Assembly (NCBI GenBank): GCA_963804995.1
Contig: CAWDSK010000006.1
Coordinates: 736,001-800,000, forward strand
From: an uncultured Acidobacteriota bacterium
Lineage (GTDB): Bacteria > Acidobacteriota > Terriglobia > UBA7540
Length of the DNA stretch: 64,000 nt
Direction: 5' to 3'
Shown here: positions 41,695 through 62,063 of the stretch, piece after piece
Layout of the letters: each line of letters begins with the position of its first letter
Numbering within the stretch: position 1 is the first letter of the stretch
Made by a program: the position numbers and the translations under genes
Notes under the pieces: model-generated
Seen by the model: only the letters and a program-made list of their open reading frames with translations
What the model was told of the DNA's origin: nothing
Databases searched by the model: none

Positions 41695-41738
41695 CGAATC
41701 GGGAAGCAGTTCGACCCATTCCCACCGCGGGGTAGACC

Positions 41739-44557: not shown

Positions 44558-46273
44558 TTGTCGCTTGTGCTTCAGAAAGAGGATGACCGGGTCCGCAACC
44601 TCATCAACTTGGGCAAGGAACGCGGCTATGTCTCTTATGACAAGGTCATCGACATCCTGCCAAGCGAGACGCGCACACCGGCGGAGATCGACAGCCGGTT
44701 CTCCGAATTCGAGCGCCACAACGTCCACGTCTACGAAGACGCTTCGGTGGCCAAGGCTGCTTCCGGTCCGCTCGGGAATACTGAACCCGTGGAATTCGAA
44801 ATGCCGGAAAATCCCGCCCGCGGTGAAGATGCTGAGATCGACGAGACCGCACCCCTTGTGGACAAGGCCAACGATCTGGTGGGGCTATATCTCCGCGAGA
44901 TGGGCAGCGTACCGCTGTTAAAGCGGGAAGATGAGGTGGCTATCGCCAAACGCATGGAGCGTGGCCACGGGTTGGTGCTCAAAACAATTTCCCGTTCTCC
45001 CCTTGTGCTCAAAGAGCTCATCGGAATGGGCAAGGAGATCCGCAACGGTACGCGTTCGATTCGAGAGGTTGTCCAGTTTGATGACGAAGACTTGAGGGTG
45101 GAGAAAATCGCGAAGAAGACCCACCTCACGCTGCGGATCATCGATAAGATTGAAAAGGTCTACGCTGCGGGGCTTGAGCAGGCGGCTTGGCTAAATAACC
45201 TTCCGAGGTCAAGCCTATCTGCTCACCTGCGGGCTCGTCGCCGGTTGTCGCGGACGCGGGTTGAGCTGTCGCGACTGGCTTGCTCGATTGGGCTCCACCC
45301 GCTCGAAAAGAAGCGCCTGATTGACAAGTTGCGGCACACGGTCGAGCGGATTGATTCGTTGGGGCGTGAGTCCACCCGCCTTGAACGGCGCGCCGGCTCA
45401 ACTGGCGGGAAGGTCGCCGCATTGCGCAAGGATGTGCGCTCGCGCCGCTCGCAGCTAAAAGCGATCGAGGAATCGAGCGAGGTCGGGCTCACCGCCCTGA
45501 AACGTTCGCTCGTTCTGATCCGGCGCGGCGAGGCTGACGCCGAAGGAGCGAAGAAGGAACTGACCGAGGCAAACCTTCGCCTCGTGGTGTCCATCGCCAA
45601 GAAGTACGCGAACCGGGGCCTGGAGTTTCTCGACCTGATCCAGGAAGGGAATATCGGCCTGATGAGGGGAGCTGACAAATTCGACTGGCGTCGCGGGTAC
45701 AAATTCTCCACCTATGCCACAGGGTGGATTCATCAGGCGGTCTTGCGGGCGATCGCCGATAAGGCGCGCACGATTCGAGTGCCTGTACACATGTTCACGG
45801 CGATCAATAAGCAGATTCGCACCAGCCGGCAACTCGTACAGGAACTAGGCCGCGAGCCCACGTCCGAAGAGATCGCCCAGCGCTTGGAGGTACCTGTTGA
45901 AAAGGTGTGCAGCACCAAGAAAGTTTCGCAGCTGCCCGTGTCTTTGGGGACGCCCATTGGGAAGGACGGAGAGTCGGCCCTGGGTGACTTAATCGAGGAT
46001 AAGGCTTCGGTATCGCCGTCGGATGCGGTCATCCAGCTCAACCTGAAGGAACGGGTGGCATCCATGCTGAAGACGCTCACGGCTCGCGAGGAAGCAATTA
46101 TCCGCATGCGGTTTGGCCTGGACAATGACAGCGAGTGCACTCTTGAGGAAGTCGGGCGGACCTTCACCGTTACTCGCGAGCGCATCCGCCAGATCGAAGC
46201 CAAGGCGCTGCGAAAACTCCGCCATCCGTCGCGGTCGGGCCCTTTCCGGCTCTTTGTCCAAACCTCTTTGTAA
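44558..46273 (+). CDS. RpoD-like sigma70 factor, divergent paralog
   Basis: Region 1.1 ([10 protein letters not shown]), 1.2 (YLREMG), 2 ([23 protein letters not shown]), 4.2 (TLEEVG...[21 protein letters not shown]); TTG start after GGGGAG. Confidence 0.9.
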
Positions 46274-46348
46274 GACAAACCTGGAGGCGGCAGCGCCAGT
46301 GCTCGAGATTGTGCGCCTCCGGAGATGTAGGGTAGTCAAGGGGAAAAA

Positions 46349-46702
46349 ATGAAAAACCTCTTTGTTGGCAATCTGAGGTTCCAAACGACGGAAAGCGATT
46401 TGACCGAGCTGTTCAAGGCGTTCGGGCAGGTTACGCGGGTCCACGTAGCGATGGATCGGGAGACTGGCCGAGCCCGCGGTTTTGCCTTCGTGGAAATGCC
46501 CAATGATGAAGAAGCGGCCAAGGCGATTGCGGGCCTTGATGGAAAAGAGATCGGGGGCCGCGCGCTTAAGGTGAACGAAGCACGTCCCAAGACGGAGCGG
46601 ACCGCACCGCGTAGCAGTGGGGGTGGAGGGCGAAGAATGGGCGGATTCTCAAACGAAGATTACCGCGAAGCCCCGCGCCAGCCGCGTGAACCTCGCTGGT
46701 AG
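46349..46702 (+). CDS. RRM RNA-binding protein
   Basis: RNP2 LFVGNL, RNP1 RGFAFVEM, LKVNEARP, Gly/Arg tail. Confidence 0.95.
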   Translation: MKNLFVGNLRFQTTESDLTELFKAFGQVTRVHVAMDRETGRARGFAFVEMPNDEEAAKAIAGLDGKEIGGRALKVNEARPKTERTAPRSSGGGGRRMGGFSNEDYREAPRQPREPRW

Positions 46703-46759
46703 TCCCAAACGAAACGTTTGGGGTATTGCCAGCTTACATTCGGATTTGAAGGAGACCCG

Positions 46760-46912
46760 CTGGCCACTACGTTCCTGAAACGTCAGAAGGAAATGAAGAG
46801 ATTGGAAAAGCAGCGCGAGAAGGCCGCACGCCGCGCACAGAAGAAACTTGCCAGGGGCACGCAAAGCGAACTTCCGGCCGAAAACATAAGTCCTGCCGAC
46901 AATGAAGCCTAG
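46760..46912 (+). CDS. Small basic protein (50 aa), probable CTG start
   Basis: aaggag SD 5 nt before CTG; TFLKRQKEMKRLEKQREKAARRAQKK. Confidence 0.55.
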   Translation: MATTFLKRQKEMKRLEKQREKAARRAQKKLARGTQSELPAENISPADNEA

Positions 46913-46978
46913 AGAGCAAACATAGCCGTTCCCTCCGAGTCGGAGCCGCAAAACTGATCCCGGGGGTTTGGCGCAGCC

Positions 46979-47484
46979 TGTCCGTCGCCAAAACTCAATC
47001 GTTTCGGGGAATCAGTGAGTTAGGGTAACGCCGGGTCGAATACGAACACGTGTAAAATCGTGCCATGGTCAGACTTGCCGTGCGTTTCTTGTGGTGGCTC
47101 AGTGCCTTTGTGCGCACTCGTAACAGCCTCGAGCTCGAAATCGTGGCGCTTCGGCACCAGGTCAGCGTCCTCAAGTGCAAGAATCCTAGGCCGCAGGGAA
47201 GCAGGTCAATGCAAAGTCATGGCTATCCCCCGCGTGGGCGGGGTACACCATCGGTACATGTGGACCCGGACTGCCTGAAAGAGCTTCTCGACGAGACCTT
47301 AGCTGACTCGCTTTTCCGAGCAGTGTCTCAGCGCAACAGACAAGAAGCAGAAGGGCGCCGAAACGGGGGCTAAGTAGTGGCACTCGAGCAGAAGGATTCA
47401 TCACCTATACCGAAGCATCCGATGAGACTGAGCAGTGCGCTCCTCCACCTCCTGGAAGCGCAGATTCATTTTTCGGTGAATACG
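46979..47484 (+). mobile_element. Internally deleted miniature of the DDE IS family
   Basis: Left end tgtccgtcgccaaaactc; N-terminal LELEIVALRHQ joined almost directly to PRVGGVHHRY; degenerate right end. Confidence 0.7.
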
Positions 47485-48068
47485 ATTATGGCTAGCCACA
47501 GCTAGTAAACAAATACCCCCAAATCAGGACACAATCCAAGTCGCACCTCGCTTGACTTAGGGTCTGAACGGTGGGAGACTATTGCCATAGGAGGACGGAA
47601 AGTTGGATTCTAGGAAGCTTTGCGAGCCGAAGGCTTCCCTGTTGACGGGTGATTCTAGTGAGTGGTGGTTTTTTCTTCCTGCTTTGCCCTCCGCGAGTTT
47701 GAGGTTTGCACACCTTTCTCCTACCCTTGCTCCATTCCTTAAGCCCGCCTAAACGGCTCGCCGGGCGCAGAACCCCGAGACTCAGTTGTCCACTCAATAA
47801 GCGGTCGTAAGAAGTGTCCGTCGGGGAGTTGCACGTTACCGTATCAAAGAGTCCAATGCGCCCTGTATCGCCATCCGTGGCGGTAAGCACGCGGACCTTG
47901 ACGAAGAAATCCTCGCGTACCAGGCCGGTCCATTTCCTCGGCCTCGCCTCCTTTTAGGGTGGAATTTGTTGTCCGATGTTGGCCGGGGTAAAAGTCCGGC
48001 AGCCGTTCTGCGCAAGTGTTTTTGCGCGCGATGGTAATGCCAAATAACTTAGATCTTGGAGGGGGCGT

Positions 48069-48371
48069 ATGATCGGAATGAATTTTCGGGCGTTACTGAT
48101 CTTGTTCGTCGCGGCCTTAATTGCGGCTTGGATACTCCACTACGTGATTCGCTATCGCTTCCTGGAGGGGTTCGATGGTTTCGTGGGGAAGTGTATCGCG
48201 GGTTGGGTAGGAGCCTGGCTAGGGTCACCGGTGCTGGGTCACTGGTTTGAGCGGGCCAAGCTTGACAACGTCTATCTGATTCCAGCCCTACTTGGGGCGT
48301 TTGTAGGCGCCTTTGTTGTTGCCGCCACCGGGAAAACGCTGGCGAAGGCGTTCTCGACCAAACCGAGCTGA
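48069..48371 (+). CDS. Small Gly-rich membrane protein (GlsB/YeaQ/YmgE-like)
   Basis: AGWVGAWLGS...LIPALLGAF, three hydrophobic segments. Confidence 0.65.
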   Translation: MIGMNFRALLILFVAALIAAWILHYVIRYRFLEGFDGFVGKCIAGWVGAWLGSPVLGHWFERAKLDNVYLIPALLGAFVGAFVVAATGKTLAKAFSTKPS

Positions 48372-48837
48372 GGCGTGTGAGGCCAAGAGGCCAGCAGAAA
48401 GCTCGTCAGGAAAAGTCTGGGTTCTGGTGGGAGGGGAGGTGTGTGCCTCGTCATCCTGAAATCCTGCGAACCCATGAGGTGGAGGATGGTTGGACAAGTG
48501 ATTGGCGTTGTCCTGTGTCTGCTTCCCTGGCTTGCAAGGCGTTATGTGATATCAAAATACCAGATTAGATACGAAATCGCTCGAGAGCGTCGATGGGCCT
48601 GGAAGCGCGGGACGCCTGATTGGATCACTAGAATCACGCCGTGGCTGGGATTTCTGGGCTGGGTAGCGTTGCTTGGCTTCATCGCTTGGGTGGTACTCCG
48701 TGCCGTTCCGGTGATAGGTGCCTCGGTGCTCGTGACGTGCTTTTCCCCTCACGCATTTCCTGGGTTCTCGAGGCTTCGCTGACTACCCGACTTTGGAGCA
48801 TAGAGACCGGCTGCACAAAGTTATCTGAGGAGGGATC

Positions 48838-49068
48838 ATGAGAGCGTATATCTTCATTAAGGTAAAACCCCGCAAAGCCCGCGCAGCGGCCGGCAAAATT
48901 GCCGAAATTGCGGGAGTGAAAGCCGCGCGTCCTTGCTGGGATCTGCCGGACCTGATTGCCCAAGTCGAAGTGGAAGACAAGACGGCCTTGGAAAACGTCG
49001 TCCTCGGGCAGATTCAGGCAGTCGAAGGCGTGACTGAAACCGACACCCACATCCCAATCGGGGGCTAA
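48838..49068 (+). CDS. Lrp/AsnC ligand-binding-domain protein
   Basis: RAYIFIKVKP...DLIAQVE...IQAVEGVTETDT. Confidence 0.8.
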   Translation: MRAYIFIKVKPRKARAAAGKIAEIAGVKAARPCWDLPDLIAQVEVEDKTALENVVLGQIQAVEGVTETDTHIPIGG

Positions 49069-49472
49069 GAGGCAGAGCTGGATGGTGAAAGGCCGGAAGG
49101 GCGGGGTATACCCCAGCAAGAATCTGAGCAAGTACGCGCTGAGCACGATCGCAGGACGAGCCAGATCTTCGGCGAGGGGAGGCGTGATTTTAGCCGCTTA
49201 GAAGTGGGAATGCGCGGGCACACTAGCCGAAGAAGGCAAACAGCAAAAGGAGAAGGACCATATTGATTTTGCGGGGTTCAAACTCACCATTCCTTGCTTT
49301 ATACCGCACTCCTGCTGGTCCCCGGAGCGTGGGAGGACGAGGAGGAAAAGTAGGTAGGGGAAGAACAGGAAGAACGCAAGCGTAAGAAGAAAAGGGTGCA
49401 TAAGGGCTCGTGGCAGGTCGCGGGGTGCATCGACCAGGCGCAGAATCGCTACCTGCAAGGGGGGGGCAAAGC

Positions 49473-49808
49473 ATGCGAACGGAGGAACTCAGAAGTTACA
49501 AACGAATATTGATCGCTCGGCGTAATGAGCTTCACATGCACGAACGGTCTACCCTGGCTACGGATCCTAGCATTCGCGATCCGACGGACTTGGGCGATGT
49601 AGCTAGGAACTCCCAGGACACTGAATTTGCTATGCGACTCTGTCAGAGCAACTCCCATTTGCTGCGGGCCATTGACGACGCCTTGGAGAGGATAAGACAC
49701 GGAACGTACGCCGTATGCACGCACTGCGGCCGCCCCATCGGGCGCCTCCGTCTGCGGGCGGTCCCCTGGACGCAGCAGTGCCGCAATTGCAAGGAGCGCC
49801 GGGCCTAG
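49473..49808 (+). CDS. DksA/TraR-family C4 zinc-finger protein
   Basis: DLGDVA coiled-coil tip, IDDALERI..GTY, CTHC...RLRAVPW...CRNC. Confidence 0.88.
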   Translation: MRTEELRSYKRILIARRNELHMHERSTLATDPSIRDPTDLGDVARNSQDTEFAMRLCQSNSHLLRAIDDALERIRHGTYAVCTHCGRPIGRLRLRAVPWTQQCRNCKERRA

Positions 49809-49860
49809 AATGGTCATAGCGGCGTCATTATTATGAGAGGCGCGTCTGGCGATTATGAAA

Positions 49861-50262
49861 ATGCCCCACCCACCGCAGCGCAAGGTCCTCATCATCGAAG
49901 AGGACCCCTCTGTGCGTAACGCTCTTTTGACATTGCTCGCCGGCTTAGGTTGCGAGGCTGACGTAGCTTACAGTGGCAAGCAGGCTATCGACATAATCCG
50001 GAGCGAGAAGTTCGACGCAGTGTTGCTTGACCTTCGCTGTGCTCATGCTCAGGCCGAGGAAGTCATGCCCAGCATCCAGTCGCTCCGTCCCAGCCTTCTC
50101 GCGAACGTGTTGGTAATCACCGGCGACGTGGCAGACGCCAAGACGCTGGATTTAATCGAACGGTACTTCCTGCTCCAAGTTCCCGGCAATCGACCGGTCC
50201 AGGATATGGCAGCGACTCTGCGGGTGCTGTTGCACTTACCCCCAGTCCTGAACAACGCGTAA
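49861..50262 (+). CDS. Single-domain response regulator receiver
   Basis: VLIIEED, DAVLLDL, VLVITG. Confidence 0.75.
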   Translation: MPHPPQRKVLIIEEDPSVRNALLTLLAGLGCEADVAYSGKQAIDIIRSEKFDAVLLDLRCAHAQAEEVMPSIQSLRPSLLANVLVITGDVADAKTLDLIERYFLLQVPGNRPVQDMAATLRVLLHLPPVLNNA

Positions 50263-50573
50263 AGATACCATGCAATTGGGCCCAAATGATCCCCGACAGA
50301 GGCACCCTCTTGAGGGTAATGCGGGCCTGGTCGTGCTCGTGGCAGAGTAGGTGGTTAAACCGCATGCATCAGTTCGGCGCTGCTGTTTTTTCTCACTCCA
50401 TTCCCTTTCCGCGAGAAGAGGCAGGCGGTTGCCCCGCACGCTCCTGGCCTCCGATGTCCTGGCTGTATCAAAGGGTCGCGCAGGGTGCGTCTGTATCCAT
50501 TTGATTCTTCATGACGGCTGACAACTTGTTTTTGCTGTCCCAAAGGATGTGGTTTGGTGCGTTCCTTGACGAC

Positions 50574-50920
50574 TCAGATGCGCTTCTTTTCGATTTGAAC
50601 TAGCCCTTCGAGCCCAAGGTCACGAAGCGCCTGGCACAGGTCTGATTCAACATGGCTAAGGTCATTCGTGGCCACATCATGCGAGGCCTCGACGGTGAGG
50701 GAGAGCCCCTGTCCTGAGGTGCGTAACTTGGGTATGAGCTTTGTCCCGAGCTTGTTCCATTGCTCAGGGGGGATGGCCCAGCGTAAGAACAGACGCACTA
50801 TCTGCTCAGTTGCCGGCGTCACCGATGGCGCGGGAGGTGCGACCGGCGGCCCCAGGACCAGTTCTGTTGGTTGCTCGGTTGGGGCTGGCATGCTCTTCGG
50901 CGGCGGTCCGGCTTACCTCA
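50574..50920 (-). pseudogene. C-terminal remnant of a larger protein, resembling DUF499 ATPase tails
   Basis: Pro-rich linker then IPPEQWNKLGTKLIPKLR...LCQALRDLGL; recognised from memory only. Confidence 0.35.
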
Positions 50921-51622
50921 GCTGATTTGGCTGGGTCCTCGTGGTTGTGGCTCGCGGTGTTTTCGGATTGGCCGTTGGGGGTAGAGCCGTTACAAGACCC
51001 CCTCGTAGTATTCTCCAGTGTGCCCGCTTCTCATTCCCGCTCTGGAGATTTGACTGGCCGCCAATCGGGAACGGGACGCCTTTCGCCCGGTTCATGACGC
51101 CGGGCTAGCCGGCCAGTGTCGAGTCACGGCGATTCTAACAAACAATCTGGTCATGCGCCAGACATGCGGCGTAGTACAAACGGGAATGCCTTCTTCCGGC
51201 GCAACAAGAGCCTTTCTACTGATTTGAGCGTTTCGCCTTCTCACGCGGGGGCCATGTAGCAGGCCAGCCGTTAACAACAATGCGCCCGCACTTCTCGCAC
51301 ACAAGATGTATGCCGTTTAACGACTGAGTGAGCCGCATTTCATTGCAATATGGGCATGCCTTCAGCTCTGGATTTGTCGGCGGCCAAAATTCCTTGTCAG
51401 GTTTTCGCTTTCGTCTCAACGTTTCTCCCTTAGGTTCCTTTCACCAGAGAGTCCAATCAACCCTGAGTGCGTCTTCCAGGATGAAGGCTGCAATCATGCC
51501 AAAGGCCACTTGGGGATGGCGGCGTCAATCGCGGCCATGAAGCGGATGGTTTCGCTCAAGGCCGTAACGACTTTGCAGTAATGCTCCAGGCCTTCATTTC
51601 AGATTGCCCTTGTCGAAAGACT

Positions 51623-52891
51623 CTATTGGTCGTGGTTCAAAATGTCAAAGACCAATGAGGTGTTGTTCAGGCTGAGCGGGATCACGTAGCTCGTGTAAAG
51701 ATTCGCCCACGAGCTACTGAGAGAGCGGATTTGGTAATTGAGTGCTCGGGAAGATCCAAGCGCGTCCATGTCGAACTGCGCGAGGTTGATGCCGGGGTCC
51801 GGGAAGGTCAGTTTGCTGTTGGCTTGAACCGGCGTCCATGTCCAGTCATGGCCGCTGCCTGTATATCGATAAAGATGAGCAGCGCTGCCGCCGGGCAGCT
51901 CCAGCAGGTAATCCGCGCCTATGGTCACGCCGGAGTCATGATAACCGGTGCCCGGGTTCTGGTCCGTATCCATGAAGATTTGCCACCTCGAGCCATTGAC
52001 CGCCCGCCACCGAAAGGCCAGGCGACCCTTGAAGTGCGTGCCGCTGCCGTCACTGCTGTCGGGCCAAAAGGTGGCGAACGGGGCCTGGACGCCCTGTCCG
52101 GTAATCGTCGCTGCCTCAGTGGTGAAGTAGCTTGGAACATCATCATAAGGGTTGCCGTCCGGACCGTCGTCAGTAACGTAGATCCAGCCGGCACCGCGCT
52201 GGCGTGCGAGCGCCACTGCCACTTGCATGTCTTGCGCCGAGCCCGCCAAATAGATGATGTGCCAGAAGCGGTCCGGAGGATATTTGTGCGTCCAGGCGTA
52301 ATCAACGTACTCCTGCTGATAGTTCTGGAGCCCTGCACCCTCAAAATTCATCAGGATATTCGTAATGCCCATCCAGCAGTCCTGAGGCGTTTGCGTGCCG
52401 GGATTCAGCACCGTGATCCGCGCTCCAACGTCTTTCTTGCGGACGTAGTTGGTAAGCTCCTGGTAATACTCAAAGGCCGTTGAGTGATATGAATTCGCGG
52501 CGCCGCAGTCGGTAGGAGCCTCGTCAAAGAAGATTCCATCGATAAGATAGTTCTGGTAGACAGCGTCGATCTTTGAGCGGACGATGTTCGGATCACGGCT
52601 GCCATATCCGGTATACGTATAGCCCAGGACGAAGATGCCGGACTTACGCGCGTTGCGGATAGCCGCATCGACCGAAGGATAATATGTCGTGTTGTCGCCG
52701 TTATTCAGATTGACGATCATGATGCCGACGGCGGAAGGCCCTTGGGCCGCCCACGCGTCCCATTGCGATGTGCCCGGCTCTTGATAGCTCGGAATGCCAA
52801 TGCGGTTCTGGGGGCGCGCCGGCGTAGCCGCCGTGGCGACGGCGATCATAAGGAGAATGGGGAATTTTACAAAACTCGAATCAATCTTCAC
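51623..52891 (-). CDS. Secreted spherulin-4 / GH135-like protein with an extra C-terminal domain
   Basis: Signal peptide, VLGYTYTGYG, DGIFFDE, VLNPG, MNFEG, FWHIIY, GWIYVTDD, NPYD. Confidence 0.8.
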   Translation of the reverse strand: MKIDSSFVKFPILLMIAVATAATPARPQNRIGIPSYQEPGTSQWDAWAAQGPSAVGIMIVNLNNGDNTTYYPSVDAAIRNARKSGIFVLGYTYTGYGSRDPNIVRSKIDAVYQNYLIDGIFFDEAPTDCGAANSYHSTAFEYYQELTNYVRKKDVGARITVLNPGTQTPQDCWMGITNILMNFEGAGLQNYQQEYVDYAWTHKYPPDRFWHIIYLAGSAQDMQVAVALARQRGAGWIYVTDDGPDGNPYDDVPSYFTTEAATITGQGVQAPFATFWPDSSDGSGTHFKGRLAFRWRAVNGSRWQIFMDTDQNPGTGYHDSGVTIGADYLLELPGGSAAHLYRYTGSGHDWTWTPVQANSKLTFPDPGINLAQFDMDALGSSRALNYQIRSLSSSWANLYTSYVIPLSLNNTSLVFDILNHDQ

Positions 52892-53405
52892 TTATGTTCC
52901 CCTCCTCCGAATAATCTCGCCAAATCGGCCGCACGCGCCTAGCCGGTGCATACGCCCATCCGGTCGGTGAATCCAAAGGCAAGTATCCGAACAACTCCAT
53001 GCCCTCGGTTGAGGACCGTCCGAAGACGCCGGCAGAATATCACCTTTTCTCCTCGGTTCGTACCGCGATGCATAGGGAATAGGCAACGAGGCGGCAAACG
53101 TCCTCCCTACCAGGGTCTGGTCGATTCGTCCTCGGGCACCGGAAAGTGTTCTGTTCAATGATGGCTGGGGGCAGCAGCTCGAAAATTAAGGAAAACAATG
53201 TTCACTTTCCGGAAAAGCTCTTTTGCGATTCAACCGGAAATTCCGTTTTCAGTTTTCGCCCGACCGATAACATACGTCTGACTGCCTCTGAATGCAGTCA
53301 GACGTATGTTATCGGTCGGTTGAGATTTGAAAACGGAAATGTTGGCTCAACTGTTTCTGAGATCGGCCCACCCCGCGTAACTCCGTGCATCGAGGCGAAA
53401 GGCAA

Positions 53406-54977
53406 ATGAATATTCTTCTCTACAATCCGGACAACGAAATCACCAACAATTTCATGCCGCATCTTTGGATGTTCCTCCTGAAATCGCTCACGCCCCCGGG
53501 TCACGTGGTGTTTCTCATCGACGGAAACGCACGGCGTTTGACCAGGGAGGAGCTCGTCGAGTACGTCCGGGAGAATCACATCGGCCTAGTGGGGATTGGC
53601 GCCATGACGCGCATGATCCGGAAGGCCTACCATATGGCGGATGCCGTGCGCGCGGCGGGTGTGCCGGTGGTGATGGGAGGTCCGCATGTCACCGAGGTGC
53701 CGGACGAACCGCTGGGACGTGACGGCGAGCCTCGCCACGCTGACGCGGTGGCTCTGGGCGAGGCTGACCAGACCTGGCCGGCCATCATCGCCGACGCCGA
53801 ACGCGGAGAGCTGAAAGAAATCTATGCCCCGCTGAATACGGAGGGCAAAGAGGTCAAGCCCTCTCTCGACGACTACCCGGTGATTCCCTGGCACCGCATG
53901 GACCTTGAGCAGTTCAACCTGATCAAGCATTTTCCCAAGATGGCGCGGCGCCTGCTCTCCCTGGTCGGCATGACCTGGCAGACCTTCCAAATGATTCCCA
54001 TTGAGTCCGGCCGTGGCTGCCCCTATGGGTGCGAGTTCTGCACGGTGACGGGCTTCTTCGGTGACTCGATTCGCTTCCGGTCGAATGAGAGCGTGGTGAA
54101 TGAACTGCTGATGCTGAAGGCGCTCGAGAAGCGTCAAAAAGGGAAGATCGGGGTATTCTTTATCGACGACAACTTCGCAATCAATCCCCGGCGCACCAAG
54201 TCCTTGCTGCGCGAAATTATCGCCCGCGGGGCGCAGGTGCCCTGGGTGGCGCAAATCAGCATGAACCTGCTGCGCGACGAGGAATTAGTCTCCCTAATTG
54301 CCCAAAGCGGCGGCAGGTGGATCTTCATGGGCCTCGAGTCCATTGACCCGGAGAACCTTAAGAGTGTCAGCAAAGGATTCAACAAGCCGGACGAATATAA
54401 GGCCATTCTGGAGCGCCTCGCTCGCCACAACCTCTATGCCATCACGTCCTTCATCTTTGGGATGGACAGCGACAAGCCGGGTGTGGCCGAGCGCACTCTT
54501 GAGGTGATTCGCTCCTGGCCGCCGGGGCTGCCTGTATTCGGGTTGCTGACGCCCTACCCGGCGACTCCGCTCTATGACCGGTTAGTTGCAACCGGCCGGC
54601 TCACCCGGCCGAAACACTGGTTGGAGTTCAAACCTTTCACCATGGACTTTTCACCTCTGGAGATTACCACCGACCAAGCGGAGGCGGAGATTTGGCAGGC
54701 CTGGGCGTGGTCTTACAGTCCCAAGACAATCGCCTCCGCCATAGGATGGTTGGAATCGAGGTCTTTTGCTGACCGCCTGATTCATCTGCTCGGCCGTCTG
54801 GCCTTCCGGGGAATTTATTTCCCGCAGATGAAGCGGCGGGAATGGGTGCAGGTCCTTTTTCAAAACCGAGGTCCCATCCTCCGCCTGCTCGCCCAGGCAC
54901 TGGAACTCAAATTCAAGCCGCGGCCGCGCGAGCCCTTCTCTCTCGATCCCCAGCTGCCGGCCGAGCGCACAGCCTGA
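53406..54977 (+). CDS. B12-binding radical SAM protein
   Basis: VVMGGPHVT, GEAD, GRGCPYGCEFC, FIDDNF, GLES. Confidence 0.9.
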   Translation: MNILLYNPDNEITNNFMPHLWMFLLKSLTPPGHVVFLIDGNARRLTREELVEYVRENHIGLVGIGAMTRMIRKAYHMADAVRAAGVPVVMGGPHVTEVPDEPLGRDGEPRHADAVALGEADQTWPAIIADAERGELKEIYAPLNTEGKEVKPSLDDYPVIPWHRMDLEQFNLIKHFPKMARRLLSLVGMTWQTFQMIPIESGRGCPYGCEFCTVTGFFGDSIRFRSNESVVNELLMLKALEKRQKGKIGVFFIDDNFAINPRRTKSLLREIIARGAQVPWVAQISMNLLRDEELVSLIAQSGGRWIFMGLESIDPENLKSVSKGFNKPDEYKAILERLARHNLYAITSFIFGMDSDKPGVAERTLEVIRSWPPGLPVFGLLTPYPATPLYDRLVATGRLTRPKHWLEFKPFTMDFSPLEITTDQAEAEIWQAWAWSYSPKTIASAIGWLESRSFADRLIHLLGRLAFRGIYFPQMKRREWVQVLFQNRGPILRLLAQALELKFKPRPREPFSLDPQLPAERTA

Positions 54978-55149
54978 GCATCTGACGAGACAGGCTGCAT
55001 ACCGGCGCGGACGGAGCCGCCCCGCAGGCGTCGATCTCCCGACCAGCCTGGTCGGAAACCTCATCCTAAATCAGTCGTGACCAGCTATGCTGGTCAGCAC
55101 CGCAGTAAGGATTTGGACACGGAACGGGACCAGAGTGCTGTGGGTTTTG

Positions 55150-55947
55150 CTATGCGGCACGCGCCTGCGCTTCTCGGCGGCTCAGAACGCTCTCGATGGC
55201 GCAGCGCAAGACGTGGGTGAGTTGATACCCGGTGAGAGGAGCAACGATAAAGTCAAACGCGCCCCCGGTGATCGTTTGCAGGTAGAGCCCGACGTCAGCC
55301 AGGCGCGCCACGACGATGACGTTCACGGGCTTGGGGGCCTTCATCGCCAGGCTCACCACGTCTGCCCAGATGCCGTCCGGGAGTTTGGGCTGGGTGAAGA
55401 TCAGGTGCGGTGGGTTCGGTCCCGTCAGCAGAGGCAGAGCTTCCTGGAGACTCCGCAAGGAGCGCACCTTCACAGACTGACCTTCTAGGGCCGATTTCAG
55501 CGCCTCCAGAGATTCTCCGAGTTCGTGCAGCAGCAGTGTCGAGACTTCTTCGGAGGCAGGATGTGCTGGGGGCCCCAAGGGCCAATACGCGCGGTTCTGA
55601 AAATGCTTGTCGGGCGGTGGTGATTCATGGGAAATGCCCGCTGCCCTGTCAGTTGCGGCCGGAGGCTTTTTGTGTGGGTAATGCCGTGCCCGGTATTCCC
55701 GGACGTCCTGCTCTTCGATACACAGATCGGCTTCCGCGCGCGACTCTTGTGTCTCTCCCTTCAATTCCCGCTGCAACCGGGCAGAACTGATGCCGGGTCC
55801 ATCCTGGAATTTCAAGCGGTCCACCCTGAACTCCTCGGACCGGACTTTGACCGTAAAATCGCGGGCCTCCCGGGGTGGGTTGATGACATGAAAACTATAT
55901 ATGCGAGAACTGGCAGAATTATCTACCCCGACATACTGTATGTACAT
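55150..55947 (-). CDS. Unknown N-terminal domain fused to an atypical receiver domain
   Basis: C-terminal PHLIFTQPKLPDG...GAFDFIVAP receiver fold lacking canonical D/K. Confidence 0.65.
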   Translation of the reverse strand: MYIQYVGVDNSASSRIYSFHVINPPREARDFTVKVRSEEFRVDRLKFQDGPGISSARLQRELKGETQESRAEADLCIEEQDVREYRARHYPHKKPPAATDRAAGISHESPPPDKHFQNRAYWPLGPPAHPASEEVSTLLLHELGESLEALKSALEGQSVKVRSLRSLQEALPLLTGPNPPHLIFTQPKLPDGIWADVVSLAMKAPKPVNVIVVARLADVGLYLQTITGGAFDFIVAPLTGYQLTHVLRCAIESVLSRREAQARAA

Positions 55948-56129
55948 ACCAGCCTCCATTCGTAATCTCGGAGAGCGTGGAACAATTGTATCCCTTCTGA
56001 GCAATCTGTGTGAAGGCTTCGCGCTTGCGACCTCGAGTCGCGCTCAGGGAGGGCGCAGCCTGGATGGCGGTGTTTAATCGGCGTGCGACGCAGCTTGACC
56101 AGGGCTCGTCGTTAACCCGGGCACGGCCA

Positions 56130-56312
56130 TCAGCCTCCGCGTCTCTTCATGGCGACTTGATCCTCCACCACTTCAAAGACAGCCTCAGAGACCGTCAGCT
56201 TCCTCACCCCCACGCTGCAAAAATATACCGTCGTATGATGGCGTTGGCACTTCAGGATCGTCCCCCATCCGTATTTGGAATGGCGAACGTATTGCCCACC
56301 CTTCAATTTCAT
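56130..56312 (-). CDS. Stand-alone PcrA/UvrD C-terminal Tudor-like domain
   Basis: GQYVRHSKYGWGTI...TTVYF.SVGVRKL. Confidence 0.6.
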   Translation of the reverse strand: MKLKGGQYVRHSKYGWGTILKCQRHHTTVYFCSVGVRKLTVSEAVFEVVEDQVAMKRRGG

Positions 56313-56327
56313 TACTGGCCCCGCATT

Positions 56328-56651
56328 CTAGTAACGCCTACCGCGATCGAAGCGGCCGTGGGAATCCCTGCCGCCGCCTTGGGATCGGCCAAATCCGGTG
56401 CGCTGGGGCTGCGCCTCATTCACGGTTAACATGCGGCCATCGAGAGACTGGCCATTCAATCCCGCGATGGCCCGCTGAAGGTCTTCACCTTCTCCCAGCT
56501 CGACGAAGCCGCATCCCCGCGGCGTCCCCGTCAACTTGTCGCGGATCACCACCGCCGAGGCCACTTGAAAGCCGGCGTTGATCACGAGTTCGCTGAGTTG
56601 GACGTCGGTAACCCTATAGGATAGATTCCCTACGAAGAGTTTAGAAGCCAT
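56328..56651 (-). CDS. RRM RNA-binding protein (second)
   Basis: LFVGNL, RGCGFVEL, LTVNEAQP, Gly/Arg tail. Confidence 0.92.
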   Translation of the reverse strand: MASKLFVGNLSYRVTDVQLSELVINAGFQVASAVVIRDKLTGTPRGCGFVELGEGEDLQRAIAGLNGQSLDGRMLTVNEAQPQRTGFGRSQGGGRDSHGRFDRGRRY

Positions 56652-56753
56652 TCGATCCTCCAATTGATGGCAGTAAGGTGAGTATCCGCCGGGTTAAGTT
56701 TACTGATAAAGCTTGCCTGCGCAGGATGCCGCGGTCAGGGCTGCCTTTTCGTG

Positions 56754-57581
56754 CTAGGGGCGAAAGTTCAGTTTGTTCGCCAGCCTGGCCTTCTCTTGCT
56801 CGGCCCGGTTCGCCTCGTCCTGTTTCTTCTGACGTTCGATTTCTTTCTGGGGGGCCTCCTGCTCATCCAGGCGGATCGCTTCGGCGATAGCCGCCTGAGC
56901 CAGGGGATCGAGCCGTTTCGAATAGACGAGCATTCCAAAAGTCGGCTGGTAGGAGGAACGGAAAAGATTGAACGAGTACTGCGAGTCCTCCCAACGTGCT
57001 ATGACCTTTTCGCTGTCGTTATAGACCTGCAACGAAGAGAAGAGGACAACCTTCGTATCCGGCCTGGACGCCGTTCCGTACTCCGCCGAAATGGCTTCGA
57101 CCATGTCCTCGTTGGTCAGCCCTTCGGTCCTTTGCCGATCATAATTGACCACCATTCGAAAGAGCTCCCCGTTGTAAAAGCTGAAGAGGATGGTCCTAAC
57201 CGCGTCCGCTTGGGGTGGAGATCTGTAGGAGAGCCACGGTTGCCATGTCAGTTCTTGAATCACTGCCGGACGTTGATGGATCACCTTTGCCTCAGACGGT
57301 TCAATAGCTGCCTGTTTCGCTACCGCGGGCAGGTTCATTCCAAATTGAAACCCCCGGTACCTGGAAAGATCTGGCGCGTCAACCAATGGCGCCGATACCG
57401 GGTCAGCTCGAAGCGAAGCGCTAAGAAAGCGTTGCGGTTGCAACGACAGTTCTTGGATCAGTGACGGCGTCTGCATTATCAACCTTGCCGAAGTCGGTTT
57501 CACATCCTGTGCGCAAATCAAGGGCGCGGCTGAAAGCACGGCCCAAGAGATTGAGATTGCGATGCTGCGCATGCTGATCAT
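56754..57581 (-). CDS. Hypothetical secreted protein
   Basis: Signal peptide, SD ggagga, YRGFQFGM domain and coiled-coil tail ending FRP. Confidence 0.7.
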   Translation of the reverse strand: MISMRSIAISISWAVLSAAPLICAQDVKPTSARLIMQTPSLIQELSLQPQRFLSASLRADPVSAPLVDAPDLSRYRGFQFGMNLPAVAKQAAIEPSEAKVIHQRPAVIQELTWQPWLSYRSPPQADAVRTILFSFYNGELFRMVVNYDRQRTEGLTNEDMVEAISAEYGTASRPDTKVVLFSSLQVYNDSEKVIARWEDSQYSFNLFRSSYQPTFGMLVYSKRLDPLAQAAIAEAIRLDEQEAPQKEIERQKKQDEANRAEQEKARLANKLNFRP

Positions 57582-57816
57582 GGGAGTCCTCCTTCAGGGG
57601 ACTTGATGCTTTACGAATGCCAGGTACGTCGAACTCGACCGAGGTCAGCCTTACTGACGCTAGCCAATCGGCATGAGGGTCAGCGACATGATACGGTCTA
57701 ACGCGGACGCGGCAAGGGTTGTCCTGGTTGCATTGCTTTTTAGCTTCTTCCTAAACTCGCCAATCCTCATACGAAGGAGAATCTTGCGCTTTCGTAGTCG
57801 GCCAAATCGGGCCTGG

Positions 57817-59585
57817 GAACGTGTGAAGAAATGTGTTTTGAGAATCGCGGGATAGGGATAAGTCGGGATGCACGATGATTTCACTTTCGTGGTGCGGGTA
57901 ATCGCGGCTGGGGGTGAGGTTGCCAGGTGAGCACCGGCGGCAGCATGATTTCTTCCTCATCCTCGTGTGGCGCTTTGGCGCTCTTCACTTACGCCGGCGC
58001 CAGGGCGGCATCGGTCAGGGTGGGCCGTCGCTGCAGGGCGAACCATCGGGTCAGGTTATAACTCAGCGCCGCCCACGTTGCCTCCAGGGTTGCTTTCAGG
58101 CGGCCGCGACAGCGGAACTGGCGCAGGCCGCAGCGTTCTTTAATCCAGGCGTGGGGGAACTCGGCGATACGCGACCGTTGACCGTAAATCCGCTGCGCTT
58201 CTTCCGTGGCCATCTTGGCCTTGAAGGCCAGGGTCGCCGCGGGTTCCTCCAGGCGCGTAATCGATCGGACCCATTGGGAGCGCGCTTTTTGCGGGGCGCA
58301 CTGGCTGCGTAACGTACACGTACGACAAGCCTCCCGCGGCGCGCGATAGACGTGGACGCGGACCCCGTGCCCGCGATTCTGTATCGCACGGTGAGTCAGG
58401 ATTTCTCCCGCCGGGCAAGTGAAGCTGTCGTGCTCGGCACGATAGTGGAAGGCGCTGGCCAGAAACGCGGCGCGGCGGCCTTGGGCGTCGCGTTCGCCGG
58501 GCTTCCAACTCGCCTGCCACGATCCATAAAAATCCACTCCGCAGTTCGCCGCCGCCGCGACCGAGGCGTGATTGGTGTAGTCGCCATCGGCAACGATCTG
58601 CCGGGGATGGCGTCCCAGCGTTTGCGCGCAGCGGTCGAGGGCCGGTTCCAGTTGGCGATGATCGATGGCATCGGTGGTCGCCTCCACATTCACGATCAGC
58701 CCGTGCGTGGTGTCCGTCAGCAGTTGCACGTTGTAGCTCGGAACCGTGCCGCCCTCGCCATTTCTCATGACGTGGGCTTCCGGGTCGGTGCTGGAGGCGC
58801 GGGCCACAAAACTGTCGCGATCGTCCTTTTTCTCGCGCTGTAAGCGCTCGACCTCGCGTACGGCAGCCTCCAAACGGCTCCGGCGTTGCCGTGCGGCCCG
58901 CTGCCGCGCCGCCACCTGCCGCCTGGCCATCTGCTCTTCTTCCGCCGCTTGTTCCTCCATCAGCCGCACTTGTTCGCGGGCCAATTGCAGGTGAGCTTCG
59001 AGCGTCGGCTGGCGCCGGAACGTATTGCCGCCGGCATTGGCCTTGATCTTCGTGCCGTCCAGCGTCACGCGCTCCAGAGTGATCAGACCCTCGGCGCTCA
59101 GCATCCCCAGCACCTGCACGAAGAGATCGTCCAGCGCCGCCTTTTGACTGGAACGAAACCCGGACAGCGTGCGGTGACTGATCGGCTCCAGCCCGCACAG
59201 CCACTGAAAGGCCGGTTCATATTCGCACCGCCGCGCCATCTCGCGCGCCGAACTGATCCCGCGGCTGTAGGCATACAGCCAGAGACTGATCAAAACCTGC
59301 GGATCGGTGTGCTCCCTCCCCGCCCGCCCCTCCACGGCGGCGATGCCGGCATAATACCGACTCAGATCCAGCCGCCCTACCAACTCCCAAATCGAGCGCG
59401 CGGGGTGATCTTCCTCAATCAGTCGCTCCACATCAATCGCCCGCATCACCATCTGGCACCGATTCACCGCAGTCAAACGAGGTCGAGTAACCGGAGGCTT
59501 GGTCGTCATGCCCGCAGTGTACCCGACCTACCACTTTCCACCTAGGCATTCTTGTTGGTTTTCAGGCTAATTTCTTCACACGTTC
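57817..59585 (-). mobile_element. IS1182-family element
   Basis: Perfect 16-bp TIRs gaacgtgtgaagaaat / atttcttcacacgttc; tgg on both flanks. Confidence 0.9.
57989..59509 (-). CDS. IS1182-family transposase
   Basis: LWLYAYSRGISSAR, LDGTKIKANA, STDPEA, SYNVQ, ADGDY, CPAG, QFRCRG. Confidence 0.93.
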   Translation of the reverse strand: MTTKPPVTRPRLTAVNRCQMVMRAIDVERLIEEDHPARSIWELVGRLDLSRYYAGIAAVEGRAGREHTDPQVLISLWLYAYSRGISSAREMARRCEYEPAFQWLCGLEPISHRTLSGFRSSQKAALDDLFVQVLGMLSAEGLITLERVTLDGTKIKANAGGNTFRRQPTLEAHLQLAREQVRLMEEQAAEEEQMARRQVAARQRAARQRRSRLEAAVREVERLQREKKDDRDSFVARASSTDPEAHVMRNGEGGTVPSYNVQLLTDTTHGLIVNVEATTDAIDHRQLEPALDRCAQTLGRHPRQIVADGDYTNHASVAAAANCGVDFYGSWQASWKPGERDAQGRRAAFLASAFHYRAEHDSFTCPAGEILTHRAIQNRGHGVRVHVYRAPREACRTCTLRSQCAPQKARSQWVRSITRLEEPAATLAFKAKMATEEAQRIYGQRSRIAEFPHAWIKERCGLRQFRCRGRLKATLEATWAALSYNLTRWFALQRRPTLTDAALAPA

Positions 59586-59641
59586 TGGACACCATTTCTT
59601 CCCGACACAACTTGCTCCTTCGCGCCCCCTGGGCTTCGGTA

Positions 59642-60070
59642 TCAGGCGACAGCTAGTTTGACTTGGGCCCAGTCCGCAAGGCGTCTGCTGTGGAATAGAA
59701 AGATACTTTCCTGGATATGTCGCGGGTGGGCGGAGACCGTCACGGAGGGTATCCCCAGGAAGCGCTTCGCGGCCACTTGCTCGATCTCCAAGCAGTTCAA
59801 TTTCTCCGATTTCATGCCCGCGATGACACTCTTGACTGCCCTGCGTGTCGTCTTTTCTATGTCAGAACCGACGGCGGTCGCTTTGACCTCACCAGCCATA
59901 AAGAAAAAGGTCCATCCTACTCCGCAGAGTTTTCGATCCATTCCGGAGCTGTCAAGGTTCTTGACCAGTCTCCAGCCCTTCAAATACGGCTCGCTTTCTA
60001 ACTGCAAGCTTTCGGGCATAACCGTGCCTTCCTTGATCAGGATGGTGCCCGTATTGATTTTGTCTGCCAT
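59642..60070 (-). CDS. Hypothetical protein (142 aa)
   Basis: SD ggggag, globular composition, co-oriented with neighbours. Confidence 0.65.
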   Translation of the reverse strand: MADKINTGTILIKEGTVMPESLQLESEPYLKGWRLVKNLDSSGMDRKLCGVGWTFFFMAGEVKATAVGSDIEKTTRRAVKSVIAGMKSEKLNCLEIEQVAAKRFLGIPSVTVSAHPRHIQESIFLFHSRRLADWAQVKLAVA

Positions 60071-60165
60071 TAGCTTCTCCCCGCTGTTTGCGCTGGGGAT
60101 CAAGTCGACAACGCCCACAGGCTTACAGTGACTCGCTTCCCAGACTGCAATCTGTTAAGGACGTC

Positions 60166-60606
60166 CTAAAGTGTGGCAACCCTTTCCTCTGCAGCGCGGC
60201 TGACGTTAGTGGCGGCGCTGTGGAGGCCTCTCATCCAGGTGCCAGCTTCCGTGCGTTCACCTGCAGTGGGCGGATAGATCAGAACCAGGCCATCACGGCA
60301 AGCATCGGCTCGACACGTGAACTGATCCTGATTCATAAGGATGAAGTCAAGGGTCTGGGCCAACCGCTCAGAATGGTATCTGTTACTGAAACGTACCCCA
60401 CTTGGATGGGCCGAAGATGTCCACATCCAGTAGTCGCACACGAGGGCCTGGTAACCCCCGGCTCTAACCGCCCAGACGCTCAGATAATCCAAGGAGGTTC
60501 CAGGTTCACATAGGTATTCAACCCGTACTGAGCATGGGTTGGCAACTTTCATCAAATCTTCCCAGGCTGAAATCACTGCAAATTGAAAGACCTTGTCTAA
60601 TTCCAT
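60166..60606 (-). CDS. Hypothetical protein (146 aa)
   Basis: SD gaggagg, co-oriented, Trp/Cys-containing globular sequence. Confidence 0.6.
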   Translation of the reverse strand: MELDKVFQFAVISAWEDLMKVANPCSVRVEYLCEPGTSLDYLSVWAVRAGGYQALVCDYWMWTSSAHPSGVRFSNRYHSERLAQTLDFILMNQDQFTCRADACRDGLVLIYPPTAGERTEAGTWMRGLHSAATNVSRAAEERVATL

Positions 60607-60734
60607 GTGGAGTCCTCCTCACGAACAAATCGCATCGATGAACTTGGACCACACGGTGCCGACGAGATCCGTCCAGGTATATGGTTAAAGGCTTGTTTGG
60701 GCCGACGACCCGGCAGCAACGAGTTCGCTGAAGC

Positions 60735-60938
60735 TTAATTCTCATATTTCACCTTGCGCGGAACCGTCACGTAGCCGGCCTCCATAAAGTACTTACCCGC
60801 GCTGCTCGCCTGGACGTCCCAGATCGCCCCCATACAAACCGCGAATCCCAGCAGGATGTAGTAACCCACGGGCGAGGGCCACCACAGCGCCAGGAGCAAC
60901 ATCGGAATGAAACCCCGCTTCATCATTCTCGTAAGCAT
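60735..60938 (-). CDS. Small membrane protein, shortened paralog of 61116-61466
   Basis: MLTRMMK...QASSAGKYF aligns by eye with MFTKIMK...QAFRTGKYF. Confidence 0.5.
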   Translation of the reverse strand: MLTRMMKRGFIPMLLLALWWPSPVGYYILLGFAVCMGAIWDVQASSAGKYFMEAGYVTVPRKVKYEN

Positions 60939-61115
60939 TGGACACCTCGTTTCTTCTTGTGCAGGGACCCTCTCGACCGGACAAGAGATAGAGGGCGATC
61001 TTGCCGCTCCCACCGAACGAAAGGCCTCTTGACTTCAGGCTACGAGGCGAGGGGTGATCGTGTGAAAGGTCAAATCGAAGACCCTTCAGCGTACAAGCCA
61101 CCAGGACTACGGCCC

Positions 61116-61466
61116 TCACAGCGATTCGCTACCCGGAGTCCGATCTGTTATCGAAGGCACTGAGAGTATTGGTTTCCACTGCAATACTGCCAGAGAGGCC
61201 AGAAACGCCGCGATGCAAACCAGATCCAACACGAGGAACCCCCCGTGAGAAAATGCAATGGGTACGGCGGGATTGAAGAGAACCGCGATGGCTACAAATC
61301 CCATCCCCCAGAAGTACTTGCCGGTGCGAAAAGCCTGTGCAGCGACAACGGCAGCGGCTACACAGACGACCAGTTCCAGGGCGATTCGGTAGCTCACCGA
61401 GGAGCTCAAAAACACGCCGAGAAGCAATGCCATGATGGAAAGCCACTTCATGATTTTCGTGAACAT
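61116..61466 (-). CDS. Membrane protein, DUF6804-like
   Basis: Four TM segments, Y..LELVVC, IAVLFNP.VP signature. Confidence 0.65.
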   Translation of the reverse strand: MFTKIMKWLSIMALLLGVFLSSSVSYRIALELVVCVAAAVVAAQAFRTGKYFWGMGFVAIAVLFNPAVPIAFSHGGFLVLDLVCIAAFLASLAVLQWKPILSVPSITDRTPGSESL

Positions 61467-61560
61467 TGGAGGCCTTGTTTCATCTTGTGCCCAGATTCCT
61501 CTTTGCCGGACTACCGAGACGGCGGACCAGCCGCCCCCGCTGAACGGAGGGATTCTTGTA

Positions 61561-61881
61561 TCAGCCTACGGCGCGGGCGGCGATCACGTGGAAGGTTGAG
61601 TTGGCAACCTCGTATGTTTGAACCCGAGGCGTTCCCTCAACCACGTCCGCCAGGGCCTTCAGTACTTTCGGATACGTTCCGCGATTGTAAGCATCCGCAT
61701 CCTCCCTCTGATCCCACAGGCTGATCCCCAGCGCTTCCAATCCGCCCGAGGCAACGAACGTAATTTCGCCCTGGAAGCCTTTCTGTTTTCGAAGCAGGGG
61801 AATGATTTCCTGGTCCATCGTGCGGGTGAACTCCGTAACACGGTTGGGCTTCAGGTGTATGGAGACATTTTGGGCAATCAT
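61561..61881 (-). CDS. ABM-like (dimeric alpha/beta barrel) protein
   Basis: IIPLLRKQKGF...ISLWDQREDADAY...TYEV; SD ggagg. Confidence 0.65.
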   Translation of the reverse strand: MIAQNVSIHLKPNRVTEFTRTMDQEIIPLLRKQKGFQGEITFVASGGLEALGISLWDQREDADAYNRGTYPKVLKALADVVEGTPRVQTYEVANSTFHVIAARAVG

Positions 61882-61980
61882 GGCAACCTCCGTGGCTCGT
61901 CTAACAGGTGCGAGTGCAGATAACCTGATTCGGTTCAGACCATCTGGAGGGTGAGGGCGGAAGCGCTCGTCGCCTTAACC

Positions 61981-62009
61981 ATAATAAGTGAATTCACTTG
62001 ATTTGTCAA
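61981..62009 (-). promoter_or_regulatory. Near-consensus sigma70 promoter with palindromic operator
   Basis: TTGACA-17 bp-TATTAT; perfect palindrome aagtgaattcactt at 61986-61999. Confidence 0.75.
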
Positions 62010-62063
62010 GTAAAATCTGAGACCTTATCGAACGTTTAACTTTTTCTGGTTAATTTCAGGAGG

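Follow-up and report, generated by a model that had tools for sequence, protein, structure and literature searches.

Fragments of a Terriglobia RNA-chaperone gene cluster and unrelated passengers on a tRNA-Phe integrase island

The window analysed here is a stretch of 64,000 nucleotides, positions 736001–800000 of contig C6 in the genome of an uncultured Terriglobia bacterium (Acidobacteriota). This host genome is labelled G000 and its contigs C1, C3, C5 and C6; G001 and so on are the other genomes compared, and L numbers denote loci. The genes at window positions 44558–62009, a 17-kb span, are cargo accreted on a tRNA-Phe integrase island of about 53 kb. Two blocks of this cargo are fragments of a gene cluster of Terriglobia that centres on RNA chaperones, and the rest are passengers. 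Our explanation, to which we assign a probability of about 0.65, is that the span combines fragments of an RNA-chaperone cluster, probably one for cold stress, with unrelated passengers accreted on the island, and that its sigma gene is redundant and decaying. An earlier note on the same DNA had seen in the span one mobile module whose sigma factor, DksA/TraR protein and Tudor domain bind three surfaces of RNA polymerase. The genes that it named are present, but the evidence does not support treating them as one module.

Two blocks and their recurrence in Terriglobia

Block A is a cassette of about 2.7 kb, comprising a promoter, a leader of about 330 nt, a secondary RpoD gene, an RRM gene and a gene for a small basic protein. 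Its features in window coordinates, including those at its ends, are as follows.

44180–44221, + strand: conserved upstream element and predicted block A promoter, with a TACAAT −10-like hexamer at 44216–44221
44248–44356, no strand: miniature inverted-repeat transposable element (MITE) of 109 bp with terminal inverted repeats and a target duplication of about 8 bp, inserted behind the predicted promoter
44558–46273, + strand: secondary RpoD, 571 amino acids, TTG start; Pfam sigma-70 regions 1.1, 1.2, 2, 3 and 4
46349–46702, + strand: RRM protein 1 (RRM1; Rbp-type) with a conserved C-terminal tail; Pfam RRM_1
46760–46912, + strand: small basic protein with no Pfam family, CTG start codon
47065–47373, + strand: remnant of an insertion sequence (IS) transposase where block A ends

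Block B lies on the opposite strand in the order ABM, DUF6804, DUF6804, two uncharacterised open reading frames (ORFs), an IS, a 275-amino-acid protein, RRM2, Tudor and X/pseudo-receiver.

61981–62009, − strand: near-consensus sigma-70 promoter (11/12) heading operon B; XRE diverges here in relatives, and an IS remnant stands here in the window
59642–61881, − strand: front of operon B with an ABM-like gene, two DUF6804 genes and two ORFs of no known family (Pfam)
57816–59598, − strand: IS1182-like element (DUF772/DDE transposase) inside operon B; four further near-identical copies in G000
56754–57581, − strand: 275-amino-acid uncharacterised protein, a conserved member of operon B with a paralog on C3
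56328–56663, − strand: RRM protein 2 (RRM2); Pfam RRM_1
56130–56312, − strand: stand-alone PcrA/UvrD-type Tudor, 60 amino acids, by profile and fold match
55150–55947, − strand: domain X (55660–55947; no Pfam family) fused to a pseudo-receiver without phospho-Asp

Linkage was counted in three sets of loci. First, at 20 sigma loci from relatives, picked as best matches and including two from another family, RRM1 and the basic gene were each present at 18. Second, a sigma-motif scan gave at least 117 loci, 80 of them with flanks (59 with at least 12 kb; two of the 80 are also in the congener set), and the named relatives in it are mostly Acidobacteriota/Terriglobia. RRM1 is found at 35 of these 80 loci, the basic gene at 34, domain X at 26, a DEAD-box helicase at 21, XRE at 16, CspA and ABM at eight each and the Tudor at seven; chance expectation at G000 copy density is below one each for RRM, X, XRE and DEAD-box and about one for DksA. 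Third, the basic protein occurs in 33 of 151 class genomes (a tally that includes G098), and 20 of these 33 loci were fetched as an independent draw. Here RRM is present at 18, X at eight, CspA at five, the Tudor at three and sigma at two, so that RRM and the basic protein form the constant core, which sigma joins only in some lineages. The same draw contains CspA-Tudor-X-RRM-basic operons in three genomes of one family. Across Terriglobia, the genes of the two blocks are found in varying order together with CspA, DEAD-box helicase and XRE genes. At other loci (L086, L104 and similar) the secondary sigma stands alone in one of two fixed neighbourhoods: 16 loci have it near proS/glyA, and in nine it lies between a two-component pair and an ECF sigma gene.

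DksA, AsnC and GlsB were found at none of the 20 relatives' sigma loci, none of the 80 wider sigma loci and none of the 20 basic-protein loci; for DksA, zero in 80 against about one by chance means no enrichment. The intact receiver was likewise not found at the 80 loci, and it is represented only once in the three sets, among the 20 relatives' loci, by a distant partial paralog 9 kb from sigma. The co-occurrence proposed in the earlier note was found in part: the sigma-RRM-basic and RRM-Tudor-X linkages recur, but sigma, DksA, AsnC, receiver and Tudor were not found to recur together in these sets.

The DNA similarity of block A begins and stops at near-identical points across many genomes while its flanks differ between nearly all congeners, which makes it a floating cassette. 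A secondary RpoD at 60% identity or more (whole, split or partial) is present in 19 of 24 congeners; in four it is split or prematurely stopped, some of these possibly being assembly errors. The TACAAT-type motif recurs upstream at 13 of 20 related loci and is the basis for the predicted promoter. A sigma-RRM-basic paralog of block A, 82% similar at the DNA level, lies on C3, and a DEAD-box helicase gene stands directly upstream of block A in G000:C3, G029 and G037. Sub-sets of operon B in the same order are found in G007, G015, G006, G003, G029 and G037, with XRE diverging from the ABM gene in four of them, and the order of the tail is kept in G007 and G015. A paralog of the radical SAM-to-RRM2 segment lies on C5, and G000 carries a second set of XRE, X-receiver and Tudor near CspA-X (C6:1152839–1160439), conserved in G005 and G008. 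The similarity of block B to its relatives stops at about 62020–62040, at the start of the IS remnant, so the absence of regulators here reflects truncation. The statement that the span has no kinase or DNA-binding regulator holds for the span itself, where none was found; at the points where this copy is cut short, however, XRE and Crp genes are present in related clusters.

The secondary sigma, the free Tudor and domain X

The sigma had been called group-1-like. Regions 1.1 to 4 are present, but the first Trp of the W-dyad is lost, and the separate clade in which the protein falls marks it as distinct from the primary RpoD and not the genome's housekeeping copy. The island sigma is 52% identical to the primary RpoD (C6:1068778–1070475) and 79% identical to the intact C3 copy. 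With the curated RpoD models it scores 563 for PRK05658 (cut-off 555) and 347 for TIGR02393 (cut-off 354); the C3 copy lies above both cut-offs. A quick tree of 96 rows (the 80 flanked loci minus those below 480 amino acids, plus nine congener secondary copies, two G000 copies and 12 primary-type sequences) sets 84 secondary sigmas apart from the 12 primary-type ones (SH-aLRT 98). In this tree the C3 and window copies do not group as sisters, and in-genome duplication of the C3 copy was rejected as the origin of island block A. Synonymous divergence (dS) of sigma is 0.20 to G007 and 0.33 to G023, against 0.80 and 2.2 for a 256-codon rpoB segment; for most congener pairs, sigma and this segment have about equal dS. 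Although these estimates are noisy, such low sigma values indicate transfer of block A from a related species. Horizontal movement of block A among congeners is supported by these sequence comparisons. Two further RpoD-like copies, about 67–68% identical to the G000 primary, were seen at G033:C10:10991–12694 (L016) and G034:C4:719119 (L242); one is on its own branch beside the primaries, and the other has an RRM gene directly upstream.

Non-essential RpoD paralogs form group 2 of the sigma-70 family, for example RpoS and cyanobacterial SigB–E. Like these, the secondary RpoD stands beside a primary one, and regions 2 and 4 are near-identical in the DNA-binding parts. Unlike them, it keeps region 1.1 and the non-conserved region, belongs to its own Acidobacteriota clade and is linked to RNA-chaperone genes. 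Secondary sigmas of this genus have Gly or Ala at the E458-equivalent position and a less acidic sigma finger; in the window copy the first W-dyad Trp is missing as well.

Three lesions mark the island copy of block A. First, the MITE starts 26 bp past the −10-like hexamer; it is absent from related sequences, contigs from two sequencing runs skip it, and its family has eight two-ended copies in G000. Second, a private W389G change (W433-equivalent, mapped by motif), TGG to GGG at base 45722, makes the W-dyad read GW. WW is kept in 116 of 116 readable relatives, and every contig aligned across this base has T. Third, the basic gene starts with CTG, against ATG in 13 of 13 readable relatives. 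According to an excerpt of PMC4593229, the E. coli W433A substitution slows isomerisation/opening 2–3-fold at 37 °C and about 7-fold at 25 °C. The W-to-G change would be predicted to hinder promoter opening, above all at low temperature. Island block A is likely a redundant, decaying extra copy, and the work of sigma in this genome would probably be done by the C3 copy behind the DEAD-box gene, likely the working one. None of the sequencing runs searched contained half of the sequence words, and no reads of this genome were found. A conserved RNA structure in the block A leader was considered and dropped (RNAalifold covariation term +1.28, two-sided change in 4 of 27 pairs), and Rfam gave no match within the span. 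Metatranscriptome contigs of relatives join leader to sigma, sigma to RRM1 and RRM1 to the basic gene; these are other organisms, DNA carry-over is possible, and the contigs are not counted as evidence.

RRM1 passes NF058537 (Rbp_regulator) with 115 against a cut-off of 100, and both RRM proteins pass RRM_1. RRM1 resembles cyanobacterial Rbp as a single-RRM protein that passes the Rbp model and has CspA/DEAD-box neighbours in relatives; Rbp1 matters in cold stress, according to an excerpt of PMC12232666. Unlike Rbp, CspA and DEAD-box cold-shock genes, the RRM genes are clustered here with sigma, the basic peptide, domain X and a free Tudor.

The stand-alone Tudor reported in the earlier note holds up. 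Its Pfam score (PF21196, 19.3 bits) is under the gathering score of 23.9, yet the profile alignment to UvrD/PcrA C-terminal domains has an E value of 2.9e-6 (7EGS_B), and the top seven fold matches of its model are all UvrD/PcrA domains with TM scores of 0.66–0.72. There are 76 homologs, most of exactly 60 amino acids. The fold, sequence and binding-face residues resemble those of the PcrA/UvrD C-terminal Tudor (PDB 5DMA, 7EGS and 7EGT; also fused in DinX): H11, Y14, R37/K38 and L39 align with PcrA H681, W684, K712 and L714, the residues tested according to an excerpt of PMC5397179. In a second Tudor subfamily, the Leu position is Phe. The difference is that this Tudor is a free 60-amino-acid protein and not a helicase or polymerase tail, and no report of a stand-alone PcrA-type Tudor was found in the literature searched. 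As described in the excerpted part of PMC8318588, the Tudor of PcrA recognises a motif present in RpoB SI1 and in UvrB and does not use the CarD/Mfd beta-1 site. The host RpoB carries the PcrA-binding SI1 motif at residue 365. A predicted complex of the Tudor with the host RpoB lobe scored 0.00 and counts neither way. The host pcrA/uvrD gene (G000:C5:438300–440899), which has its own C-terminal Tudor, lies in two reading frames in the assembly.

Domain X is about 97 amino acids long, is found in 24 of 24 congeners and has 663 representatives. It has no Pfam family, no PDB sequence match and no Foldseek match at E 0.001, and the Atlas matches of domain X and of the small basic protein are hypothetical proteins only. 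The model has a beta-beta-beta-alpha arrangement (pLDDT 87.6), and its best fold match is DUF1488 (PDB 2GPI; Z 6.0, rmsd 2.5, 72 aligned), a family without known function. Identity between the two is 10%, and the Z score is in the range of a common arrangement. Domain X lies directly upstream of sigma in many loci. The receiver fused to it has Gln at the phospho-Asp position, likewise in its closest relatives, and a Pfam score under the cut-off. Of the two orphan receivers described earlier, only that at 49855–50262 thus has a phospho-Asp.

As sequence features, the free Tudor, domain X and the cluster that recurs in Terriglobia are real, and they seem not to have been described before. The literature searched, mostly open papers and including excerpts of PMC6511836 and PMC13323075, contained no description of a cluster of RRM, basic protein, X, Tudor and sigma and, in agreement with the earlier note, no named system composed like the span. 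The supplements of PMC13323075 list sigma genes borne on mobile genetic elements and may bear on novelty.

Proposed working and alternative readings

RRM, CspA and DEAD-box proteins act as RNA chaperones, in many cases at low temperature. By analogy, the cluster would work like a cold-shock/RNA-chaperone locus with a group-2-type sigma, distinct from the primary RpoD. Where the cluster is intact, the RRM/CspA proteins and the DEAD-box helicase would keep mRNAs translatable under cold or similar stress, and the secondary RpoD would sustain or shift initiation at RpoD-type promoters. XRE and Crp would control expression of the cluster, and the free Tudor would probably occupy the PcrA-binding motif on RpoB or UvrB, competing with PcrA. 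Block B is taken to be one operon, from the promoter at 62009 to RRM2, Tudor and X-pseudo-receiver, and may still work as a chaperone operon read constitutively after the loss of XRE. The wider cluster, which includes the free Tudor and domain X, deserves further attention; the 17-kb combination itself is incidental and of little consequence. Terriglobia abound in soil and peat, are for the most part uncultured, and little is known of their regulation. The recurring set of RNA chaperones, together with the second RpoD and the two small uncharacterised factors, offers testable candidates for the way they cope with cold. A natural free PcrA-type Tudor would also serve as a ready probe, or regulator, of PcrA recruitment to RNA polymerase.

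Several points weigh against this explanation. Cold induction is assumed from family knowledge only. Of the 80 sigma loci, 25 lie in two fixed neighbourhoods without chaperone genes, and related genomes are not independent samples, though the linkage does span several well-supported clades. The sigma frame is open and has four private changes at otherwise invariant sites, where most congener copies have 0–4, and no gene compared reaches a pairwise dN/dS of 1, the largest values being those of DksA (0.70) and GlsB (0.67); decay is thus not proven. Blocks A and B lie within 10 kb in G007, and RRM2-X-XRE stands beside sigma in G018, G016 and G002, so the two blocks may share island history. Finally, block A and the GlsB-DksA block (beside XRE) both have close counterparts in G001, on separate short contigs that could be one island.

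A broader proposal is that Terriglobia share an undescribed, horizontally exchanged stress module, in which mRNA chaperoning (RRM, CspA, DEAD-box, basic peptide and domain X) is tied to transcription via the second RpoD and a free Tudor that blocks PcrA/UvrB at SI1, with the window copy rearranged and partly damaged. Domain X could then be a factor of a new kind that binds sigma or RNA. We consider this possible but doubtful. It is unlikely that the island is only a sink of neutrally accumulated, IS-shuffled chromosomal duplicates in which no copy matters. Paralogs of almost all the genes exist at other places in G000, many IS remnants lie on the island along with truncated genes and an isocitrate dehydrogenase gene in two parts, and block A has its three lesions; but block B keeps open frames, a near-consensus promoter, dN/dS of 0.12–0.49 and a tail order shared with two genomes.

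Somewhat less probable again is the co-selected mobile toolkit of the earlier note, with sigma, DksA and Tudor acting jointly on three RNA polymerase surfaces. All parts do lie on one island, DksA keeps its DxxDxA motif and C4 finger, blocks A and B are adjacent in G007, and block A and the DksA block each have a close counterpart on short G001 contigs. The zero counts for DksA and AsnC at related loci speak against it, however, and AsnC was not found in any of the 24 congeners. Among DksA matches in 40 genomes, only G008 has a secondary sigma on the same contig, 275 kb apart, and the junctions hold mobile-element or gene remnants. For DksA, AsnC, GlsB and the intact receiver, the pattern is largely that of unrelated IS-bounded fragments that do not co-occur elsewhere, which the earlier note had itself named as speaking against its module. 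That the W-to-G sigma is a functional dampener, which binds core and promoters, melts poorly and titrates RNA polymerase in dormancy, is highly improbable: the frame and regions 2.1–2.2 and 4.2 are intact and W433A sigma-70 still binds core and promoters (excerpt of PMC4593229), but the change occurs in no other sequence examined, is accompanied by two other private lesions and may be a sequencing error.

Passengers and the tRNA-Phe island

Between and beside the two blocks lie the passengers and remnants.

48069–48782, + strand: GlsB/transglycosylase-associated-like protein and a 113-amino-acid ORF, passengers; closest copy G001:C417
48838–49068, + strand: stand-alone Lrp/AsnC ligand domain, passenger (Pfam)
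49473–49808, + strand: DksA/TraR-family protein, 111 amino acids, passenger; C4 finger and DxxDxA intact
49855–50262, + strand: stand-alone receiver with phospho-Asp, passenger; only close copy alone in G005
50574–50891, − strand: C-terminal remnant of a DUF499 protein of about 924 amino acids
51216–51419, − strand: small basic ORF with a Zn ribbon, whose 73% paralog stands alone on C5
51623–52891, − strand: spherulin-4 family protein, passenger (Pfam)
53406–54977, + strand: B12-binding radical SAM protein; Crp gene directly upstream in relatives, not here

Pfam confirms the sigma, two RRMs, AsnC domain, DksA/TraR finger and one receiver that had been recognised in the span. Two small basic proteins had also been listed; the second had no coordinates, and we equate it with the Zn-ribbon ORF. 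Roughly half of the span's ORFs had gone unlisted: the B12 radical SAM, spherulin-4, GlsB-like, two DUF6804 and ABM-like genes, three unknowns, the DUF499 remnant and IS1182.

Each block has its own paralog elsewhere in G000 and its own closest relative, and the block junctions hold an IS remnant, the DUF499 scrap, a full IS and the MITE. The AsnC-GlsB block has a paralog on C1. The 111-amino-acid DksA protein is like DksA/TraR in its C4 finger, coiled coil and DxxDxA, which we take to be the tip motif; unlike DksA/TraR, it is multi-copy, without sigma linkage elsewhere, and under the NCBIfam DksA cut-offs (66.9 against 115.5 and 59.2 against 105). Among 40 genomes it has one close relative (82%, G001:C417). 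It is one of six paralogs in G000, and DksA-type genes are multi-copy (1–9) in all 24 congeners. The intact receiver has one close relative (83%, G005), where the other span genes are not found within about 9 kb. At what we take to be the receiver consensus positions, the Asp after beta-3 is present and the conserved beta-5 Lys is not evident. The Crp gene lies 5′ of radical SAM in six fetched loci and on C5. Over the whole of G000, the Crp-type regulator of the cluster has nine or more close paralogs, and there are six DksA-like and five RRM genes.

The island location claimed in the earlier note is confirmed by the tRNA-Phe, the tyrosine integrase, the attachment (att) direct repeats and a site that varies in relatives.

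26374–26449, + strand: tRNA-Phe, the integration site; its 3′ 50–53 bp are repeated downstream
26507–27685, − strand: island tyrosine integrase adjoining tRNA-Phe; a G018 integrase at the same site is 95% identical, with other cargo

Copies of the 50–53-bp tRNA-Phe 3′ end lie at C6:815591, 843299 and 886824, which is 53, 81 and 124 kb downstream, so that the 17-kb span belongs to the first (about 53 kb) of three tandem elements. Together, these occupy about 124 kb at one tRNA-Phe (G000:C6:762,374–886,873), each ended by the same repeat. The sequence after this tRNA-Phe varies in five congeners: G018 has an integrase and other cargo, G005 has cNMP-gltA-mdh without an integrase, and three have unrelated genes. 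As in other tRNA-integrated tyrosine-integrase islands, the integrase is beside the tRNA, with an att repeat, a tandem array and a variable site. Unlike in typical ones, the cargo is heavily IS-shuffled, and no self-transfer genes were recognised in ORF lists and partial Pfam scans of the island, with no family-directed search made. GC content is no island marker (0.55–0.60 in most 1-kb bins against about 0.58). The interior has many IS remnants, a split isocitrate dehydrogenase and shortened genes.

Further elements were seen on or beside the island. A large serine-recombinase element lies at window 27745–32427, with near-identical copies on C6 (two) and C1 and its recombinase here in two frames. 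At 32681–37800 are a cNMP-domain gene, citrate synthase, isocitrate dehydrogenase (split, two frames), malate dehydrogenase and an IS-cut ferredoxin-type gene; the cNMP-citrate synthase-malate dehydrogenase block also stands 3′ of tRNA-Phe in G005. An IS-flanked 5.9-kb unit with an acetolactate synthase-C-terminal ACT fusion (37923–43819) is 99% identical to G000:C1:53112–59007. The 120 bp at 50436–50555 are 82% similar to G000:C1:27207–27325, just past a reverse-transcriptase-like ORF. At the far end of the island (G000:C6:803035–809839) lie two large ORFs, the second with GH94 and glycoamylase domains, which suggests a split cyclic beta-glucan synthase-like gene. Lastly, palindromic repeat families were seen at window 26020–26200 and 53241–53338, the first with more than 100 matches in G000 and many in congeners.

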